Source: an uncultured bacterium (GTDB taxonomy: Bacteria > UBP14 > UBA6098). From it: DNA of 64,000 nucleotides. Below the pieces are notes generated by a model. That model did not search any database. It was not told the DNA's origin and worked only from the letters and a program-made list of their open reading frames with translations. Positions 783 through 35,821 of the stretch are shown piece by piece. The stretch's first letter is position 1. Every line of letters begins with the position of its first letter. Position numbers and translations under genes: made by a program. The stretch lies in the NCBI GenBank assembly GCA_964459995.1, contig CAYWOR010000001.1, positions 273,328 through 337,327 of the forward strand. The letters run 5' to 3'.

Positions 783-3700
783 ATGAAAAAGTTGAGCTTG
801 ATTTTATTATTCACGCTTTTCGTATCAATAGTTATTGCTGAAATTCCTTCTGCATGGCCGCTTGAAACGCTTATGGGAGTCGAGTTACTCGAATCCTCCA
901 ATGGCGAGTTCCCCCCCTGCGCAGATATTTTATCCTGCTATTTTAATGCGCAGTCGAACCGTATTCGGCTTCGGTTGCCGATGATGACAAATTTCATAAC
1001 CGGCGAGAACGAGTTTTCCTCGTATAATTGCGGAGTCCAAATCGAAATCGCCTATTCGGGCGCGCTGTCCGACGGCGTTCTCGGATTCTCGCATAACAAT
1101 ACGATATTTCTCGCCGTCGGACACGACGGACGAACCTCTGCATGGGCTTATAACGGTGCCCCTGTCGAGATTGACGAGGTCTATTTCGCGCCGGAATTTG
1201 GAATAATCGAAGCGGAGGTTCGTCCGCCGGCTGAAGCCGAAGGCTTCGGCGCGCGCCCTGTAGTGCGGGTCGAGACATTTGTGGACGGCAGAGCGGCTGA
1301 TATCGCACATTTCGACCCCGAACTCTTTCCGACATACACGACAAACTGCGCATTTATGCATCACGGCAATCAATCGCTGTCCTACACCGATGTTTTCCGC
1401 GGAAGATGGGACGACGGCCATGGCGGCCTTGCGAGCGGTTTTGACGAGGTTCTCGAAGTGCACCAGTTATATTCGATACCGGGGAATTTTCATATCAGCG
1501 GGACACTTATCTCTGCGGCGGCTTGGTATGACGCCGATTTCAATACATGGGTGGCAAACGGTGTTTCCGGAGGTTGGATAGAAGTTAACACAAGCGCATA
1601 CGCACAGCATATAATGCCCTTCGTGGCGGACGAGATGAACGACTGGGCTGTTAGCATCGAAAATGCCCTGGTTGACCATTTTTACGGGTTCACACCGCGA
1701 GTTGCATGGGTTCCGGAAAGGGTTTTTCTCGACGGCCCGGGCGGGGCATACCCCAACGCGGGTGTCAGCGATTATATCGCGGACAATTTTGCTGATAACG
1801 GGGTTTGGGCGATTATTCTCGACGATGACATTCATCTGGCGGGACATGACAATCACCAAATCCATTATTTAAACGGAAGCACGCTTAGATTAATACCACG
1901 CGACAACGATTTTACGGGCAAACTTCACGCTGGAGACGGCGGTGGCGCGCTCAATAATCTCGTCGGAATGGCGAACAATTCGTCGGGGCCTTATCGAATA
2001 GCTGTTTACGCCGATGATTGGGAAATGGCCGCCGAGATGGGCGAATGGGCATCGAGCATGCCGAACGCACTCGACGCTTATGAATGGATTATCCAGCAGT
2101 GTCACCTCGAATCGTCGTGGCTTTCGACATGGAAGCTCACCGACGCCGTTGTAAGCCCGAATTTCAACGGTGTAGGGGTTACACCCGCTTACGGCACACA
2201 CTCTTCGATTGGCGGGACCAACGGTTACGGCGGCGGGAATAACGCGTGGTACACACACTGGGCCAGCTATTCAAGCCCATCCGACCAGCACTCGCCGCAA
2301 TGGAATTTTGGATATATCTGGTTCGACGCAAAAAATAACCTTATGACCTGCCCAGATAACAACACCGCGCAGGCCGGATGGTATGTGCTTATGTCGAAAC
2401 TTTACGAGACCGGTTGGCATGACGGCATGGGCGGCTCGATTTCCGGCTGGCAGATGAAGCATTCGGCTCATATCAAGAACGCGAACGTTTATGCCGAAGC
2501 CGCGAGATGGGCTAACGGCGATCTCGGAACCGGGGTAAGCGCGACCTATGCCGATTGGGATCACAACGGCGATAACGAGCTAATCCTTCGCAACGGCAGA
2601 GTGCTTGCGGTTTTTAAACATATTGGCGGACGCGCGCATTGGATTTTCGGGCGCGGTGGCACGACAGGATGGGAAGGCTCGATTGCTGGCAACTGCAATG
2701 TCTATTGGGAAGGCACCGAGGGCGATTATAACGATGCTAATCATATCGCGCCTCTCTCCGATGTCAGCGTTGGCGGACACGATTATCAACATAGTCTCTA
2801 CAGCTCTGAAATCCTCTATAGCACAGCTGATTCTGCGGAAATAAGATTTACAAATTATTATGTCGATAAGCGAATAAAAGTGAAATCCGGTGAGCCATTT
2901 TTCCGTGTTTATTACGACACCGGCCCCGATCACATATATGTCAAATCCGGGTTCACGCCCGATTTGGTCGATATCATCTGGAACGCTGATATGAACAGGC
3001 TTTGGAGTGCGGGAAGTTACTGCGGTTTTCATAATCCGAACACACGCGCTTCTGCGGCGATAATTATGGGCACCGGTGGGGCGTCCCATTCCACCGATTT
3101 CCAGAGCACAATTCTTCGCGGCGACGAAATTTCCGGCTCGGGCGGTTTCGGGTTCCGTATTTTTGCGGGCGAATTGGCAGATGTCGCGGGGATGTCCTCG
3201 CCGACATTGGCGACACTTTCCGCCGGAGTTACCGATATTTATCCGCCGAAGGCCTACTATGCCAGCTATCACCCCGGTACCGGCGTAATGGAGATAGCTT
3301 TTGGGGACACTGTCAAGTATAACATGGTAACGATGGCAAATATCGGCATCGACCGCAACGGCAATGGAGCCTCCGATGTTACTCTCGACGGCACATGCAC
3401 GGTTATCAACACCTCGCACGCCAAGATTATACGGATTACTCTGTCGCCGGCAAAAAAGACCGCGGTTAACGCATTGGTTATGACAAATCCGCATCTATGG
3501 CTCTCCGCGGGCGCGTTTAGGGATTTGCGCGATAATCTGAACACAACACAGACCGCAACGGTCGGTTCGGGAGTTCAGTTGAATGTCCTGCCGGCGACGA
3601 GCATCACAATCGACGGCTATATAGACACATCGGAATGGCTTCCGGCGATGCATGTCATCGACGACCCGGACGATGATTCGCACTGGGGCGCTTCGAATGA

Positions 3701-4529
3701 GCTTTACGATCTTTATATGTTCTGGGATGATACCTATCTCTACCTCGGTCTTCACGGTGTAAAAGAGGCCGCGAGAAGCATGGTTGTGAATTCGTGGCTA
3801 ATTTACCTCGATACAGATTGGGGCGGCCCGAACGGCCAGTCCGATCTTCGCGAAATAAGTTCTTGGGACAGGAACGCGCAGTTCTCCGGCGGATTCCGCG
3901 CCGATATTCAATATGGCAGTTGGGGCGCGATGGATGGCGATGTCTGGCGTATCACAGGCCCGACTACCGCGGTGCAGATAACCGACGGCGTAATCGTGAA
4001 TACCGACCTAAGCGCGGCGCGTCCGGGAAGCGAAATCGCGATTAGTTGGAATTCTATCTACGGCATAGGCGAGGGTTTTGTAAATCCCCTGTCAACTATC
4101 GCTATTTGCGCGAGTTTGGCTGGAACGAACGATGACGACAATCTCGGCGGCGACTGCATTCCGAACCAGGCCTCGGCCTCATTTCCGGTTCTCGACAGTT
4201 TCTATGTGCAGGTCATCGATGCCGATGGCGACGGTCTTCCTGACGATTTCTTCGATGTCGTGGGAATTAGTGAACATGCTCCTTCTCGCGCCGAAAGTTT
4301 CGGAATACGAGCCTGCCCGAATCCCTTCAATTCTGCGGTTGAGATAATTACTTCGACTCGTAATAACTTGACAGTTGAGATTTTCGACATCAAAGGCCGG
4401 TTTGTCGATAGGGTCGAAATCGAGGCGGGAAGAGGAATTTGGCGTCCAAAAGAGGAAATGCCGACTGGAATATATTTTGCAAAAACAGGAAAAGGCTCCG
4501 ATTCGATAAAAATAACTTATCTAAAATAG
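783..4529 (+). CDS. Very large secreted protein (1248 aa) with T9SS type-A C-terminal sorting domain. N-terminal region carries GH57-like motifs (WVPERV, HHGNQ, LDDD). A CBM9-like module lies near residue ~950.
   Basis: Signal peptide MKKLSLILLFTLFVSIVIAE. C-terminus 'CPNPFNSAVEIITS..LTVEIFDIKGRFVD...GIYFAKT...KITYLK' matches Por_Secre_tail (TIGR04183-like). 'AWVPERVF' resembles GH57 conserved region III (WLTERV). 'GYIDTSEWLPAM...DLYMFWDDTYLYLGLH' is CBM9/DOMON-like. The catalytic assignment is weak. Confidence 0.55.
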   Translation: MKKLSLILLFTLFVSIVIAEIPSAWPLETLMGVELLESSNGEFPPCADILSCYFNAQSNRIRLRLPMMTNFITGENEFSSYNCGVQIEIAYSGALSDGVLGFSHNNTIFLAVGHDGRTSAWAYNGAPVEIDEVYFAPEFGIIEAEVRPPAEAEGFGARPVVRVETFVDGRAADIAHFDPELFPTYTTNCAFMHHGNQSLSYTDVFRGRWDDGHGGLASGFDEVLEVHQLYSIPGNFHISGTLISAAAWYDADFNTWVANGVSGGWIEVNTSAYAQHIMPFVADEMNDWAVSIENALVDHFYGFTPRVAWVPERVFLDGPGGAYPNAGVSDYIADNFADNGVWAIILDDDIHLAGHDNHQIHYLNGSTLRLIPRDNDFTGKLHAGDGGGALNNLVGMANNSSGPYRIAVYADDWEMAAEMGEWASSMPNALDAYEWIIQQCHLESSWLSTWKLTDAVVSPNFNGVGVTPAYGTHSSIGGTNGYGGGNNAWYTHWASYSSPSDQHSPQWNFGYIWFDAKNNLMTCPDNNTAQAGWYVLMSKLYETGWHDGMGGSISGWQMKHSAHIKNANVYAEAARWANGDLGTGVSATYADWDHNGDNELILRNGRVLAVFKHIGGRAHWIFGRGGTTGWEGSIAGNCNVYWEGTEGDYNDANHIAPLSDVSVGGHDYQHSLYSSEILYSTADSAEIRFTNYYVDKRIKVKSGEPFFRVYYDTGPDHIYVKSGFTPDLVDIIWNADMNRLWSAGSYCGFHNPNTRASAAIIMGTGGASHSTDFQSTILRGDEISGSGGFGFRIFAGELADVAGMSSPTLATLSAGVTDIYPPKAYYASYHPGTGVMEIAFGDTVKYNMVTMANIGIDRNGNGASDVTLDGTCTVINTSHAKIIRITLSPAKKTAVNALVMTNPHLWLSAGAFRDLRDNLNTTQTATVGSGVQLNVLPATSITIDGYIDTSEWLPAMHVIDDPDDDSHWGASNELYDLYMFWDDTYLYLGLHGVKEAARSMVVNSWLIYLDTDWGGPNGQSDLREISSWDRNAQFSGGFRADIQYGSWGAMDGDVWRITGPTTAVQITDGVIVNTDLSAARPGSEIAISWNSIYGIGEGFVNPLSTIAICASLAGTNDDDNLGGDCIPNQASASFPVLDSFYVQVIDADGDGLPDDFFDVVGISEHAPSRAESFGIRACPNPFNSAVEIITSTRNNLTVEIFDIKGRFVDRVEIEAGRGIWRPKEEMPTGIYFAKTGKGSDSIKITYLK

Positions 4530-4811: not shown

Positions 4812-6182
4812 ATGAAACAGTTTACAATTATCGCCCTAATTGCCGTATTATGCGCACCTTTGTTTGCCGAGGTTGGCTGGTGCGGCGAGATATGGCCGAA
4901 TTCCGGAAGCGAAAGGCCCACCGGAGACCCTATAACAGTATATTTCCAAATTTGGAAAGGCGGAACGACAGACTCCCCCGGAAGAGGCGAAGGAATCGCC
5001 GCAACGCTCTACTGGAGAGAATCCGGTGCGGCGGTTTGGGAAACGGTCGAGTTGGATTATAACACGGATGTCGGAAATAACGACGAATATTTTGGCGATA
5101 TTCCCGCGCCAGTAGCAGAAGGTGTCATCGAATATTATTGCGAAGCCCTCGATTCAACCGATATGGTCGCCTCGACCGGCACAGACCAAAATGGTGTCGC
5201 GCTTAACTTGCTCGATCCCGGAATTCTGAATATAGTCGATGCGATTGAAATCGATGTTACGGTAACATTCCAGGTCGATATGAGCCTTGAAATAGTCTCC
5301 GATGTTGTTACGCTTTCCGGCTCTTTCAACGGCTGGAATACATATGCCGACACGATGACCGACCTCGATTCGGACGGAATATTCACAATTGACATAGTTT
5401 TTCCGGCGGGAAGTTCTCCGAGTCACGAGTATAAATACGTCAAAGACGGTGTTTACGAATACACATCGAACAGAATTCTCACCGTAGATGATTCTTCACC
5501 TACCCAAATTCTACCGGTTGTATTCTTCGAGGATCGCGACCCTGCGGACTATACTGATATTGACATCGATGTCCATTTCCGTGTTAATATGTCCGCGGAA
5601 ATTGTAACCACGCCCTATGTTGCGGGAAATGTTTTTCCGCTTGTCTGGGGCTGGGATGCTGGATGGAACGATGCCCTTATTCTTTACGATGACGGCGCGC
5701 ATGACGACGTCGCCGCGGGCGATGGAATTTACGGCGCGATATTGACTTTTCCGGCGGGAAGCTGGCGGTATATCGAATACAAGTTCACAACCGACGGCAC
5801 GGATAACGAGCCTTTGCCGCCCTTCGAGAATCACACTTTCGAGCTTGGCGATGTCTCTCCGCAGGTTCTTCCTATCGATGTTTTCGGAAGTCTCGAAAAT
5901 GTTTCCGAGGTGGTCTTGCCTAAGGGTTTTTCGGTGAAAGTATCGCCGAATCCTTTCAATTCTGCGGTCGAAATCGCTGTGCAGGCACTTAGAACAGGGA
6001 ATTTGGAACTTTCGGTTTTCGGAATCGACGGGCGACTTGTCAAAATTATTTATTCGGGAAATATCACGGAAGGCAATAATATATTCCGCTGGGATGCTGT
6101 TAATGAAAACTCCGGGTTATATTTTATCAAAATTGAGAATAATGGAATTTCGCACACGGAAAAAATCCTTCTTGTGAAATAG
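4812..6182 (+). CDS. Secreted protein with two starch/glycogen-binding-like (CBM20/25/48-type E-set) modules and T9SS type-A CTD. Start refined to the internal ATG with an upstream SD.
   Basis: SD AAAGGGG upstream of ATG 4812. Signal peptide MKQFTIIALIAVLCAPLFAE. Two modules of pattern 'V..V.L.GSFNGW......M.D.D.DG.F.......EYKY..DG'. C-terminus 'VSPNPFNSAVEIAV...LSVFGIDGRLV...GLYFIKIE....KILLVK'. Confidence 0.55.
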   Translation: MKQFTIIALIAVLCAPLFAEVGWCGEIWPNSGSERPTGDPITVYFQIWKGGTTDSPGRGEGIAATLYWRESGAAVWETVELDYNTDVGNNDEYFGDIPAPVAEGVIEYYCEALDSTDMVASTGTDQNGVALNLLDPGILNIVDAIEIDVTVTFQVDMSLEIVSDVVTLSGSFNGWNTYADTMTDLDSDGIFTIDIVFPAGSSPSHEYKYVKDGVYEYTSNRILTVDDSSPTQILPVVFFEDRDPADYTDIDIDVHFRVNMSAEIVTTPYVAGNVFPLVWGWDAGWNDALILYDDGAHDDVAAGDGIYGAILTFPAGSWRYIEYKFTTDGTDNEPLPPFENHTFELGDVSPQVLPIDVFGSLENVSEVVLPKGFSVKVSPNPFNSAVEIAVQALRTGNLELSVFGIDGRLVKIIYSGNITEGNNIFRWDAVNENSGLYFIKIENNGISHTEKILLVK

Positions 6183-6188
6183 GACGAT

Positions 6189-9100
6189 TTGAAATCATCT
6201 GTTGCCATAATTACTTTGATTGCGGCTTTTGCCCTCCTCGCGATTGCACCCTATAACAGCCCAATTATCGATGGTGCAATTGAGGCGGACTGGAAACCGG
6301 ACGAGAACATCCTCTCGGATCCGCCAAATGACAGCCCTTGGAGCGGAAACGAGCTTTGCGAATTATGGTTGACATGGTCTGCGGATCATCTATATATCGG
6401 TATCGAGTTTTCCGTGTCAGGAAATGGCGTTACTGTCTATATCGACGCCGATGAGGGCGGCACTTCAAGTTTCCGCGCAGAAGACGACTGGGAGGGCGCT
6501 TGGCGGCGCGATGTTACCTCGGAAAGGCCTATAGATATATTTATGGGCGGCTGGAATGGCTCCGCGATGAGTGTTTATCGAGCGGGCACGACAAATTCAA
6601 TCGATATAAGCGGTTTCTGCGAATCTTCCACAGGAGCGGGTTTCGAGGCCGAGGTGAAAATTCCGTGGGCGCAGATTTACCCCTCCGGAATGCCGGTGGG
6701 CGCAGAAATAGCTGTGGCGGTGCTTCTTGTCGGAGGGGACGACTATTTCGCCGCGGACGCTATGCCGGATCAGCCAACAGTTGGCGACGGTGCCGGACCG
6801 GATATCCTCGAGAATTTCCAGATTGTTGCCGTGGATTCTGACAGCGATGGCGTGCCGGATTTCGCGGGGACTTATATTGCAGGATTTGTGCGATTTTCCG
6901 ACATCGATACGCCGCCCTATCCGGTGGCGACAATCAATTGTGCAGGGCGTTTCGGCGAATCATCGACTTCTGACGGAAGTTGGCAGTTGCATGGCTTCGC
7001 GGTTGGAGATACTCTCGCATCGCTCAAAGCGAAAACTCCGGGGTATCGCGATGGAATCCTTCATGAAATTCTTGTAACCGAGCCGCCCAACGACACGTTG
7101 AATATTACTTTGGAGCCTTACACTGGAGCGGTTCGCGGGATGATTATTCCCGCCGTTCAGTGTTCAATCGTAGCGAGATTCTCCGATCAGAGCGACTCCG
7201 CGCGCTATTCGATATCAGTTCTAAGCGGCACTGGAGGCGAATTTGCTGTCGGTTACCTTGCGCCGGGATATTGGGATATTACCGCTTATCCTTATTCAGC
7301 GGATTTCTCCGCCACGAACGTCGAATCGGTGCGAGTCGCGGAGCCGGAGACGACGGTCATCGAAATTTTCCTCGAAGCCGCCTCGATTCTGCGTGAGTGG
7401 ACAGATGGTGTCGGCGACGATTATGGCCCGGGGTCATATACTTACCCGACCGAGCCGGTTTTCGTCGATGGTGCTTTCGACATAACCGGCGTCAGGATAA
7501 AGGATTACGCGGACGCCGGCGAAATCGAGTTCGAAATCGCAATGCGGAATATTCCCCATTACGGAATAGTTAACTGGGCACCCTTTTATCCGCCCCTAAA
7601 TCTACAGAAGATAGACATTTATATTGACGCCCACGGCGGAGGCTCCAGCCAAGGTCTTCCAAACCGCAATGTAAATTTCGTTCAGACCGATTATTGGGAC
7701 TGGGCGATTTCCGCTGACGGTTGGTGGGTCGGGATGTTTGCCTCCAACGGCCAGAGCATTTTCGATGGCTACACTCAGAATGTCATAGATGTTTCGATGA
7801 CTGCGGACACCTCGGCGAATACGATTTCTATTCGTGTTGCGAAATCGGCTTTCAGAGACCATTTGGGCGTTGCGAATTGGGACGAGTTCGACAGCTGGGA
7901 TTTCATCGTCCTTGCGATGGGGCACGACGGCGACGGTCTTGGCGGTGTGCGGTGGGTCAACCCCGGAAGCGCGAGCCAGTGGCAGTTTGGCGGCGGCGCG
8001 GAGGGGGATATCGATCCGAATATTATCGATATGTCTGTCAGTGCGGGAATCGACCCCGGAACAGGCTCAGTAAAAGAACCGGCGGATCCGCAGGAAACTC
8101 AACTCGACTGGACGATTAGCACTCCGGTGAGGCTTGCGGCGCATCGTGCCTTGGATGTTACACCTCCGACTATAGAGTTCGATAGGGAAGCCGAATTGGC
8201 GCATCTTTTCGGCACAAAGCACCTTTTAATTCGAACCGAAATCAAAGACGATATTGCGGTCGAAAGCGCTTGGTTACATTATCGGACGGCTGGCGCTTGG
8301 GACAGCGTGGCGATGGGAATCACAGAAAACCGCACGACTTGGTTCGGCGACATTGCGGTCGAAGGAAGGCTGGAAGACACAGATATCCCCGATTCGCTGA
8401 AATTTTTCTTTACGGCGACAGATGCCGCTGGCAACCGTGCGATTCTTCCCGACGACGGCGATTCGACCGTGCCGAATTATCCTTTTGCGGTGCATAGTGC
8501 GAATCCCGGGCGGGTCGTTTCCGCGCCGATAACCGTGGACAGCCTTAGAATATGCCTTCCGCAGAGTATGGACACTCTCGATTTCGATTTTGTATCCGGC
8601 GATATGATTCGAATCGCGCGGGCAGATTTGACTTCCTCCGGCACGATTTGCGTTGCAATTTCCTATCCGGCGGTCGTAGCGCGTGAGGGTGGTTTGGCGC
8701 GGCTTTCCGAAGTTAGACGGCGCATCGAAATCGGCGGTGCGGACATTTTCACACCTATGAATTTGCGGCTTCACTGGCTTGGGGGGAGAATTTCCGGGTT
8801 CGAGCCTTCGCAGTTGGTCTTATGCGAATACAGCGCGGATATCGCTCCGAGGCCCTACGGCGGAGTATTATATGAAAGAGCGAATACAATACTCGGCGAG
8901 GCTTTTCCCGGCACCGGTTTTTGGGCTGTCGGCGAGGATTTGCGAGATTTTCGCGGCAAGGGCGCATTGCGGAATATCGCCTTTTCGCCCAATCCATTCT
9001 CCCCAAACGGAGACGGCGTCTATGACCGGGTCGCAATCAGCTGGGAATCTGATTTTGACGGCAGTATGGATGTGGATATTTACGATATTAACGGTAATTT

Positions 9101-33807: not shown

Positions 33808-34911
33808 CTACTTGTGGCTTCCGTTTTTGTAAAGCGGAGGTTTTTCGACGGCCGCCGCGACCGGATGATTCCGAATTAGAATCTGAATCCGATTGCCGGG
33901 TTTATGTTCGCCGAATTCGACATAACCTAGTCCGACACCGCAGTCTATCGAGGGCGAGAATGTCCCGCTGGTAACGATTCCTATTTCTCTGCCGTCTTTT
34001 ACGATTGGATATCCGTGCCTCGGAAAACCGCGTTCGAGCAGTTTGAAGCACACGAGTCTTTTCGAGATGCCCTCGGCTTTGGCGTCGATAAGGCGGTCTC
34101 TTCCGACGAAATCGCCCTTTTCCAGCTTGACAATCCATCCGAGGCCGGCATCCCATGGGTTGACCGTGTCGTCGATGTCGTTGCCGTAAAGCGCGTATTT
34201 CATTTCGAGGCGGAGGGTGTCTCTCGCGCCTAATCCTATCGGCTCTATATCGAATTCTTTGCCGGCTTCCACGGCTTTGTCCCAAATATCGAGGCAAATT
34301 TCTGGGGCGATATAAATCTCGAAACCGTCTTCGCCGGTGTATCCCGTGCGCGAGAAAAGAATATTTTCATGCCCGCCGATATTAGCGAAAGCGTTTTGAT
34401 AGAATCCCAAAGAATCGAGGTTATAATCGGTGATTTTCTGCATAACTGCTTGCGCTTTGGGGCCTTGAATAGCAATTAGCCCGATGTTGTCGGAGATATT
34501 TTTCAGCTCGACACCTTCCGCGGGGAGATGTGATTTGACCCACTCCCAGTCTTTTTCCATATTCGAGGCATTTACCACGAGGAAGAAATCGTCCTCGCCG
34601 ATTTTATACACCAGAAGATCGTCCACAAAGGTGGCGTTGTCATAAAGCAAAGCGCTGTATTGGCAATCGCCGATTTTCAGTTCTGAAGGATCGTTTGTGG
34701 TGATCGATGAGATGAATGCGAGCGCGCCAGGACCTTTCACACTGAATTCGCCCATGTGCGAAAGGTCGAATATCCCCACCAGTTCCCTTACTTTAAGGTG
34801 TTCCGGGACTATTCCCCGATAAGACATCGGCATCTTGAAGCCACAGAAATCGACGATTTTGGCGTCTGCTTCGAGATGTCTTTCATAAAAAGGAGTTCTT
34901 TTGACTGACAT
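33808..34911 (-). CDS. gcvT: Glycine cleavage system T protein (aminomethyltransferase). Start refined to the internal ATG with a GGAGGA SD.
   Basis: 'KRTPFYERHLEADAKIVDFCGFKMPMSYRGIVPEHLKVRELVGIFDLSHMGEF' is the canonical GcvT N-terminus. The 368-aa length fits. The track's longer ORF (start 35043) extends into the intergenic inverted-repeat region. Confidence 0.8.
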   Translation of the reverse strand: MSVKRTPFYERHLEADAKIVDFCGFKMPMSYRGIVPEHLKVRELVGIFDLSHMGEFSVKGPGALAFISSITTNDPSELKIGDCQYSALLYDNATFVDDLLVYKIGEDDFFLVVNASNMEKDWEWVKSHLPAEGVELKNISDNIGLIAIQGPKAQAVMQKITDYNLDSLGFYQNAFANIGGHENILFSRTGYTGEDGFEIYIAPEICLDIWDKAVEAGKEFDIEPIGLGARDTLRLEMKYALYGNDIDDTVNPWDAGLGWIVKLEKGDFVGRDRLIDAKAEGISKRLVCFKLLERGFPRHGYPIVKDGREIGIVTSGTFSPSIDCGVGLGYVEFGEHKPGNRIQILIRNHPVAAAVEKPPLYKNGSHK

Positions 34912-35000
34912 GATTCCTCCGATTAGATTTTGACTAAACAGATTAAAATAATCGGATATCCTCACTTTCGCAAGGAAAATCGCGCGAAAATTCCACGCGA

Positions 35001-35215
35001 GGGGGGGGCGTCGGGTGCGTGCGCTTCCGGCCAAAAATCGCATATATGGAATAAAAATCGAATTTCCGGAAGCGCACGCACCGAGGGCAGACCTTCATCG
35101 GGGGGATGTGGATTAGGGAGGAAATTTTCGGGAAGGTCTGCCCTCGCTTCGCCAATGGATAAGAGATTTTCGAATAACATGGGGATTTTTGCCCATTGGC
35201 GAAGCCGACGCCCCC
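35001..35215. repeat. Nested inverted-repeat array: outer IR (gggggggcgtcgg / ccgacgcccccc) enclosing three consecutive perfect hairpins (17-, 14- and 13-bp stems), each with a 34-35-nt loop
   Basis: IR-B 35013-35029 ggtgcgtgcgcttccgg / 35065-35081 ccggaagcgcacgcacc. IR-C 35082-35095 gagggcagaccttc / 35131-35144 gaaggtctgccctc. IR-D 35145-35157 gcttcgccaatgg / 35192-35204 ccattggcgaagc. All perfect reverse complements read directly from the sequence. Confidence 0.8.
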
Positions 35216-35305
35216 CTTTTGCAGTGGGAGTTGCATTTTGCAAAATGCGATGGAAATATGAAGACACCGATGTTCCTATACCCTATAATAATAGGCTTTA
35301 ACGCA

Positions 35306-35321
35306 TGGTATAAAATTTGCA
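35306..35321 (+). promoter_or_regulatory. Possible sigma-54-type element TGGTATAAAATTTGCA upstream of the second pilin gene, plus the 16-bp perfect palindrome gcattttgcaaaatgc at 35232-35247
   Basis: GG and GC dinucleotides at canonical spacing. But only ~15 nt to the ATG (near-leaderless), so the call is weak. The palindrome is a perfect reverse complement. Confidence 0.3.
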
Positions 35322-35335
35322 TATTAAAAACCGCT

Positions 35336-35821
35336 ATGAGCAAAAAGAATAAAAATATGGGTTTTACTCTTATCGAACTGATGATAGTGATAGTTATCAT
35401 CGGGTTGCTCAGTGCTATGGCTCTTCCGAGGTTTAGGAAAGCTTCTCAGGAGGCGAAAAAATCCGAAGCGCGGCTCATGCTGAAAAACATTTACCAAGCC
35501 GCAAGAGTATATCAGCTTGAGAATGGCGGGTATCCGCCGTGCAACCCCGACGGAAGCGCGAAATGGGGCGGATGGTGGATGTTCAATAACTCATCGACAC
35601 CAAATAGAAACTGGAATAAGCTTCCCGGTCTCGATGTCGATGCTCCGAGCGGCTATCCGAGATTCACCTATGTTATTTCGAGAAGCGGACCTTTTTTCCG
35701 GGCAGAGGCTTGGGCATGGTCTCCGGATTCCTATGACGGCGCTATTGTCTATGGTGTTCGGGACTTGATAATCGACCACAACGGGATTTTTTATCAGGGT
35801 TCTGCAAAGCCGAGCTGGTAG
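35336..35821 (+). CDS. Type IV pilin-like protein (162 aa). Start refined to 'MSKKNKNMG|FTLIE'.
   Basis: Class III signal peptide 'GFTLIELMIVIVIIGLLSAMALPRF'. The track's longer ORF (35189) has an implausible leader. Confidence 0.75.
   Translation: MSKKNKNMGFTLIELMIVIVIIGLLSAMALPRFRKASQEAKKSEARLMLKNIYQAARVYQLENGGYPPCNPDGSAKWGGWWMFNNSSTPNRNWNKLPGLDVDAPSGYPRFTYVISRSGPFFRAEAWAWSPDSYDGAIVYGVRDLIIDHNGIFYQGSAKPSW

Follow-up and report, generated by a model that had tools for sequence, protein, structure and literature searches.

A palindromic block with conserved stems and drifting loops between the divergent gcvT and pilin genes of an uncultured bacterium

The window analyzed here is a stretch of 64,000 nucleotides from an uncultured bacterium (GTDB lineage Bacteria; UBP14; UBA6098), positions 273,328 to 337,327 of contig CAYWOR010000001.1 in assembly GCA_964459995.1. 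Between a gcvT gene and a type IV pilin-like gene that are transcribed away from each other, it holds a 214-base block (window positions 35003-35216) in which an outer inverted repeat encloses three perfect hairpins, as found both by direct reading and with a repeat finder. Comparison with a sister species shows the block to be a real element, restricted to a lineage of two species and to a single locus, and, judging from its substitution pattern, selected for its fold. As to the molecule that folds, we tentatively favor, with a confidence somewhat short of even, a selectively maintained DNA element that can form a cloverleaf or cruciform between two divergent promoters.

The outer stem pairs 35003-35013 with 35206-35216 (GGGGGGCGTCG(G)/(C)CGACGCCCCCC) over 11 bp, or 12 if the base shared at the junction is counted; its 5' arm, GGGGGGCGTCG, is preceded by further G residues at 35001-35002, and its 3' arm, CGACGCCCCCC, is followed by a TTTT of the ancestral flank. 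Inside it, hairpin H1 (35014-35030/35066-35082) has a perfect 17-bp stem and a 35-nt loop (35031-35065, 26% GC), H2 (35083-35096/35132-35145) has a stem of 14 bp, or 15 with 35082/35146, and a 35-nt loop (35097-35131, 51% GC), and H3 (35146-35158/35193-35205) has a perfect 13-bp stem and a 34-nt loop (35159-35192, 32% GC). No unpaired nucleotide lies between one arm and the next, giving a closed four-way junction, at which G35014 could pair either outward or within H1. The ~57 pairs are all Watson-Crick, with no G-U pair, no mismatch, and no bulge, and the arms are 73% GC. With the outer stem denoted A and the stems of H1, H2, and H3 denoted B, C, and D, the arms make up four conserved segments of 25-31 nt each (A+B, B'+C, C'+D, and D'+A') that are cyclically complementary and recur every ~65 bp, or about six helical turns. 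In the outer stem, a run of eight G (G8) faces C6 in the source species, and the C-run of the sister is C8. Every loop carries two GATTTT-like direct repeats ~20 nt apart, and loops 1 and 3 are partly complementary to each other.

This structure is real and lies far beyond chance. With RNA parameters the block folds at -135.9 kcal/mol on the plus strand and -116.8 kcal/mol on the minus strand (z=-10.9 and -10.7, respectively), and 0/200 shuffled sequences fold as well; with DNA parameters the same junction is obtained at -70.6 kcal/mol (z=-8.1) and is the minimum-energy fold of both strands. Perfect stems of at least 11 bp with loops of 30-40 nt occur in the 64-kb window as H1, H2, H3, and one other, and no GC-rich stem of this type was found in ~594 kb of control loci, whose long stems carry the 3-14-nt loops of terminators. 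A preliminary description of this DNA had noted the four inverted repeats, and all four are present essentially where it had placed them. It had also set them apart from simple terminators and from clustered regularly interspaced short palindromic repeats (CRISPR), and it was right on both counts: the conserved segments are all different, and the block has no direct-repeat family >22 nt at 73% identity.

The nine assemblies contain the block in the same or nearly the same form, and it is therefore not an assembly artefact. Two single-nucleotide polymorphisms between strains are reliable within the block, at 35060 in loop 1 and at 35173 in loop 3, and both fall in loops. A separate observation concerns an assembly of the Joint Genome Institute (JGI; L003), which differs at seven clustered positions in ~5637-5690 (window 34973-35024), four of them being C/T-to-G changes inside 7 nt of the H1 5' arm (GGTGCGTGCGC to GGTGGGGGGGG). 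Considered as a sign that this stem is dispensable, the G-rich arm was set aside, since it probably reflects a poly-G error of sequencing at the strong hairpin and not a real allele.

The most informative comparison is with the sister species. Its version of the locus was reached through a pilin variant in a 90% cluster, on a contig (L228) from the same sample as L224, which likewise belongs to that species. Source and sister have serine hydroxymethyltransferases (SHMT) that are 95.7% identical and rpiB and glyA genes with 90% nucleotide identity, and they group as ((source, sister), L225), L227 in the tree. The block is present in L228, which begins within loop 1, 304 nt before the pilin gene; the arms available for comparison are B', C, C', D, D', and A', and the contig does not reach the 5' arms of the outer stem and of H1 or the left flank. 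Among the visible arms, 0/82 stem positions differ between the two species, versus 25/100 loop positions for all loops together (Fisher p=7.6e-8). The 3' arm of H1 is identical at 17/17 positions next to a loop 1 of 68% identity, both arms of H2 are identical around a loop of 69% identity, both arms of H3 are identical around a loop of 88% identity, and the 3' arm of the outer stem is identical as well. One change at a loop end extends the H2 stem of the sister to 16 bp. In an adjoining unconstrained stretch (35256-35296), identity drops to 37%. This pattern indicates that base pairing is under strong purifying selection and that the loops largely are not; the loops do not appear to be constrained in sequence and would hence not be binding motifs. 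Because the stems are frozen while the loops drift, a decaying insertion, a neutral mutational by-product, and operators located in the loops are all ruled out.

The nature of the missing substitutions bears on whether the selected pairing is that of RNA or DNA. In an RNA, a C>U change opposite G or an A>G change opposite U keeps the pair, and the expected number of such changes can be derived from the substitution rates in the loops or in the neutral stretch. For a plus-strand RNA, 6.7-8.0 wobble-compatible transitions are expected between the two carriers and none is seen (P=7e-4 to 2e-4); for a minus-strand RNA, the expectation is 3.0-10.0, again with none seen (P=0.04 to 7e-6). The absence of wobble-compatible changes points to selection for strict Watson-Crick pairing on both strands, and thereby favors a structure at the DNA level over an ordinary RNA. 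The same preference follows from the lack of G-U pairs and bulges, from the zero-nucleotide junctions, and from a location outside the transcription units as these are inferred from conservation.

That location can be judged from relatives that lack the block. The flanking genes, gcvT (33808-34911, minus strand; GCV_T domain) and the pilin-like gene (35336-35821, plus strand; N_methyl domain; leader MSKKNKNMG/FTLIELM), diverge as had been described. The organism belongs to the candidate division Zixibacteria, judging by the names that homologues of its GcvT and SHMT carry. Among species-representative genomes the nearest GcvT is only 53% identical (Bacteroidota), making GcvT-based synteny of no use there, and the spacer was instead compared with two syntenic Zixibacteria relatives, L090 (GcvT 80%) and L091 (GcvT 77%). 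The syntenic spacers of both lack the block. The preliminary description had held that a lack of conservation in related genomes would speak against its reading; what we find is absence from these two relatives and conservation in the closer sister species.

Three conserved modules are shared by the gcvT-pilin spacers of the window, L090, and L091. One is a promoter-like site at 34945-34973 on the minus strand (TTGCGA-17 nt-TATTTT; consensus TTGCRM-N17-TATTTT in the three), which, by its conservation across three species, is inferred to be the gcvT promoter. Another is a palindrome at 35231-35243 (TTGCATTTTGCAA; consensus form TTGCAWTTTGCAA), kept also in the sister contig, which is probably the binding site of a regulator of the pilin gene; the third, ~60 nt downstream of it at a constant distance, is the pilin box at 35306-35314 (TGGTATAAA; TGGTATAAW). 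The gcvT site and the palindrome are separated by 30 nt in L091, by 85 nt in L090, and by ~255 nt in the source species. The block occupies this variable gap between the gcvT promoter-like site and the pilin promoter/operator, and, because it fills the gap between the two promoter modules, it would lie upstream of both promoters and in no leader or untranslated region. The sequence comparisons show that the block entered a dispensable gap in the common ancestor of the source species and its sister. The T-run that follows the outer stem is also found in L090, which has no block, and is thus ancestral flank rather than an evolved terminator tail.

The left border is less clear. Directly abutting the block, 34980-35000 can form a terminator-like hairpin on the minus strand (9 pairs including two G-T, a 3-nt loop, then TTTTCC), for which no counterpart was found in L090 or L091, and which lies beyond the sister contig. 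It is only possibly part of the element, and it could insulate gcvT from transcription through the block. The leader of gcvT is ~27 nt long and has no glycine riboswitch, and gcvT in this clade seems to do without it. In several public assemblies gcvT is annotated as a protein of 411 aa (window 33808-35043, minus strand) instead of 367 aa. These calls arise because the reading frame stays open through the block, allowing a start at an ATG in loop 1 (35043), and the 411-aa version is an annotation artefact caused by the palindrome.

We propose the following model for a DNA element at this site. Either strand would close into the four-way junction, with three GC-rich arms capped by ~35-nt loops. 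Divergent transcription builds negative supercoils between promoters, as described by the twin-domain model, and the fold would form when negative supercoiling from two divergently firing promoters opens the duplex, nucleating at the AT-rich loops 1 and 3; alternatively, opening could come from transiently single-stranded DNA at replication. A single-strand binding protein (SSB) on the loops might help extrusion. Extrusion would take up ~20 helical turns and bring the promoter modules from ~255 bp to ~40 bp apart, roughly the ancestral spacing, so that the element might serve as a supercoil-responsive spacer or insulator between gcvT and the pilin gene. By a rough estimate with DNA parameters, extrusion of H1 costs 48 kcal/mol versus a superhelical relief of 48-65 kcal/mol at sigma -0.06 to -0.08, and extrusion of the whole block costs 177 kcal/mol versus 130-182 kcal/mol over the same range, also a rough estimate. 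These approximate figures would put the element near a tipping point, as expected of a supercoil-sensitive switch. It is the DNA-level nature of the element to which we commit; any specific physiological output is a guess.

The strongest alternative, which we regard as possible although less probable than not, is a gene for a structured small RNA, encoded on either strand, whose transcript folds into the four-way junction and acts as a scaffold, as a protein sponge, or through loop-loop contacts, with transcription ended by the outer helix or, on the minus strand, by the small hairpin and its U-run. Conserved intergenic structures in bacteria are mostly RNAs. In addition, the fold is very stable on both strands, loops 1 and 3 have their partial complementarity, loop 3 is well conserved (88%), and the terminator-like hairpin with its TTTTCC directly follows the block on the minus strand. 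RNAalifold further predicts, for the plus strand only, that loops 2 and 3 contain inner helices rich in G-U pairs, with one compensatory (two-sided) change and two compatible one-sided changes. As proof of a plus-strand RNA, however, this covariation fails, since random substitutions do as well (permutation p=0.2-0.8), and it is in the loops, where such RNAs usually carry their function, that conservation is lowest here. No Rfam family reaches its gathering score in the window, and even at E<=10 the region 34600-35600 returns only microRNA noise (E 0.6-1.5); ARAGORN finds 0 genes for transfer RNA (tRNA) or transfer-messenger RNA (tmRNA) in 34800-35400; and a consensus scan reveals no convincing promoter directly upstream on either strand. 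The T-run after the outer stem is ancestral, as noted above, and an RNA would also have to account for 0 G-U among ~57 pairs and 0 of the 3-10 expected wobble transitions. Of the suggestions in the preliminary description, that of a structured noncoding RNA has thus fared best, keeping part of its plausibility while being disfavored by the absent wobble changes and by the position upstream of both promoters. Its exclusion of the glycine riboswitch was sound: the covariance model RF00504 has no match, and the block lies upstream of the gcvT site (34973-34945, minus strand) and not in the gcvT leader, as that riboswitch requires.

Several points weigh against a DNA element. The carriers are two species only, and the left third of the block lies outside the sister contig. 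Because no stem substitution is seen, positive covariation is absent, and the evidence consists of conservation together with the missing wobble changes; recognition of the stem sequences themselves would leave an identical trace and could account for it. The wobble test assumes that G-U pairs are near-neutral in an RNA. The conserved loop 3, whose G-U-rich inner helix is possible only in a plus-strand RNA, and the minus-strand hairpin that abuts the block would both fit an RNA, and functional DNA cruciforms are rare relative to structured RNAs, so the prior favors RNA. Finally, extrusion would be slow and energetically expensive with 35-nt loops, of which loop 2, at 51% GC, is not AT-rich.

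A mobile origin was also suggested in the preliminary description, in the form of a miniature inverted-repeat transposable element (MITE) or a repetitive extragenic palindromic (REP) element. On this view the block inserted once, has no host function, and belongs to the non-autonomous mobile or foldback elements, with the outer repeat as its terminal repeat. It is indeed a discrete insertion, absent from two syntenic relatives, placed in the sole dispensable part of the spacer, and bounded exactly by the outer 11-12-bp repeat, which thereby takes the position of terminal inverted repeats. Other such elements occur in the clade: L225 (SHMT 89%) carries a REP/MITE-like dispersed palindromic repeat (GTCATTGCGAGG...CGAAGCAATCT...) at 958-1030 and 7703-7804, sites 7 kb apart, to which nothing similar exists in the window. 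However, target-site duplication is not seen, as the flanks, ...CACGCGA(GG) and TTTTGCAG, have no direct repeat in common, and the four arm pairs are mutually unrelated, unlike copies of one REP consensus. No second copy of any arm or loop is found in ~77 kb of source-genome sequence (the 64-kb window with 9.2 kb to the left and 3.4 kb to the right, thus 12.6 kb of extra flank, ~2% of the genome in total), nor do 12-mers of the four conserved segments occur outside the orthologous locus in the 2.05 Mb compared; a loop profile has no further match in the 64-kb window. Exact pieces of the block are absent from IMG/VR, and comparison with 72,556 plasmids and 50,697 phages reveals no similarity. 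The Pfam-annotated neighbors include no transposase, integrase, reverse transcriptase, Cas protein, or REP-associated tyrosine transposase (RAYT), and no reverse transcriptase gene lies within 6 kb of the block. Moreover, a dead insertion should decay evenly, in conflict with the stem and loop counts above, and the block is present in all strains. As far as the searches reach, the evidence has turned against this suggestion, and we consider it improbable, although, with ~2% of the genome covered by the copy search, a low-copy family is possible.

Equally improbable in our view is that the block is a by-product, without function of its own, of template-switch or snap-back DNA synthesis that makes or perfects inverted repeats in this lineage. 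Such a process would explain why the arms are exact complements with zero-nucleotide junctions, and two other inverted repeats could be taken as its traces. One of these, HY, lies ~2 kb past the right end of the window (L222 1395-1455; CCCGAATGTCAA/TTGACATTCGGG, 12 bp perfect, 37-nt spacer), between rpiB-glyA and a gene for a secreted protein and thus again between divergent promoters of the same genome; adjacent to it is a 9-bp inverted copy, GGAATTTGC/GCAAATTCC. Compared with L224 (1-209), L225 (9300-9531), and L227 (9260-9530), HY is best explained as a pair of -35 boxes placed back to back, which are complementary at 5/12 positions in L225, 8/12 in L224, and 12/12 in the source species, where the spacer between them has shortened to 37 nt from 48-49 nt. 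The changes occurred in situ; a large rearrangement at HY was rejected, since the matches of genes X and Y cover the same C-terminal positions and the promoters still align. The other repeat, LX (window 1066-1123), is a perfect 12-bp stem with a 34-nt loop inside ancestral coding sequence, an open reading frame (ORF) for 1248 aa (783-4529). Yet template switching accounts at most for the origin of the block. It does not explain why 82 stem positions have stayed unchanged since the split from the sister while neutral DNA was scrambled, and these unchanged arms refute pure neutrality; correction from arm to arm predicts paired changes, of which none is seen; and the window holds no source template for the block, the longest shared word, of 13 nt, being at chance level, so that a templated origin from nearby DNA was dropped.

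HY and LX, both of which resemble loop 3, were also considered together with the hairpins of the block as one repeat family in which the loop is conserved and the stem varies. A GATTTT...GATTTTTG pattern recurs in the loops (inverted in loop 1), and without any shift of register the LX loop matches loop 3 at 68% identity. LX is directly abutted by an 18-nt repeat (89%) with a 70-nt spacer (window 1124-1229). Whole-unit similarity is significant only for H3 and HY (p=0.006 over 10 comparisons). The family was abandoned because the sister species shows the reverse, frozen stems and drifting loops. LX was excluded as a member because its encoded peptide aligns with distant homologues, and HY because its left arm and half of its loop are the rpiB promoter conserved in four species; HY is an interesting parallel to the block, with no evidence of a family. 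A loose form of the loop motif gave 120 chance matches in IMG/VR, none with flanking stems, and a specific form gave 3 chance matches in JGI metagenomes, a collection without this species. Some contigs end near these repeats: L228 starts inside loop 1, and L222 and L223, both from the source species, are interrupted at two different places in the gene beside HY. The hairpins or strain variation may be what breaks the assemblies at these points.

Least probable of all, and very unlikely, is the multi-operator module of the preliminary description, in which proteins bind the loops as duplex or the arms as half-sites and regulate gcvT and/or the pilin gene: the position between two divergent promoters, the paired GATTTT-like repeats, and the regular spacing of the segments would suit it, but the loop motifs are not kept in the sister (loop 1 68%, loop 2 69%; 25/100 loop positions changed, with stems at 0/82), protein binding alone does not explain why four different segments are cyclically complementary, and relatives regulate the same genes without the block. 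The motif GAGATTTTCG, which can mislead motif searches in this genome, helps neither this module nor the loop family above. It occurs 6 times in the window (4377, 8944, 36024, 38091, 44452, and others), and GAKATWTTCG has 8 matches versus 2 expected, but this enrichment stems from coding sequence, at least the copy at 4377 representing 'EIFD' codons of a C-terminal sorting domain of the type IX secretion system (T9SS).

To the best of our knowledge, bacterial chromosomes offer few clear cases of selection on the secondary structure of DNA itself, as opposed to an RNA or a motif bound by proteins. The comparative signal is unusually clean here, combining frozen arms, drifting loops, scrambled neighboring DNA, and no wobble-type change, with the caveat of a narrow distribution of two species and one locus. 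If the block acts as DNA, it would represent a naturally occurring junction of several arms, responsive to supercoiling and inserted between two promoters, and some riboswitch-like 'structured intergenic regions' obtained from folding scans may not be RNAs. If it acts as RNA, it would represent a new RNA family from a candidate phylum without cultured members. The literature searched contains no description of an element of this architecture. It is conceivable, though we hold it only with reserve, that the block stands for an undescribed chromosomal class, either a closed four-way-junction 'DNA cloverleaf' with strict Watson-Crick symmetry that acts as a supercoil- or single-strand-dependent switch between promoters, its loops perhaps sized for an SSB tetramer, or else a new wobble-intolerant structured RNA. 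At 214 bp, the element is short enough for RNA and DNA pairing to be told apart directly by mutating its arms.

Among known systems, the inverted terminal repeats (ITRs) of parvoviruses such as adeno-associated virus (AAV) offer a close formal parallel. They fold into a T- or Y-shaped hairpin, A-B-B'-C-C'-A', for which exact DNA complementarity is required. Like them, the block has an outer palindrome around abutting inner palindromes, and one strand suffices to close a multi-arm junction. ITRs have two short arms with 3-nt loops, form the ends of a linear single-stranded DNA genome, and contain Rep-binding and nicking sites. The block differs in its three arms, its 34-35-nt loops, and its chromosomal intergenic site, and the Pfam lists show no Rep-like gene nearby. 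With promoter cruciforms it shares perfect repeats, GC-rich arms, partly AT-rich centers, a site of divergent transcription, and, by our estimates, tipping-point energetics. The promoter cruciforms described to our knowledge are single repeats with short spacers, and a nested four-way junction with 35-nt loops is not a type we know to be described.

REP elements and their relatives (bacterial interspersed mosaic elements, BIMEs, and REP doublets forming hairpins, REPINs), as well as MITEs, are likewise short, intergenic, noncoding, palindromic, and present or absent between related species. However, these families are multicopy, share a sequence, and decay neutrally, whereas the block is single-copy in the sequence compared, has four unrelated arms and no target duplication, and appears to be under purifying selection. 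G4-type complementary-strand origins and the single-strand initiation (ssi) sites of plasmids resemble it in having three adjacent hairpins, and they work in SSB-coated single-stranded DNA. The site size of the SSB tetramer in its 35-nt mode equals the ~35-nt loop length, which is a lead only. Unlike the block, which has no phage or plasmid similarity, these origins reside on phages and plasmids, with small loops and no enclosing stem.

Among RNAs, the glycine riboswitch, which is the structured element usually found upstream of gcvT, shares with the block a multi-helix junction upstream of this gene, but the block does not match its model, lies upstream of the promoter, lacks a conserved unpaired core, and is missing in close relatives with the same gcvT. 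The msr-msd RNA of retrons also has an outer inverted repeat (a1/a2) around several hairpins over ~200 nt; here, however, no reverse transcriptase is adjacent, and the stems are perfect, without the usual irregularities. In its logic the block resembles the compound palindromes, that is, viral ITRs and cruciform-forming repeats, while being a member of none of these groups.

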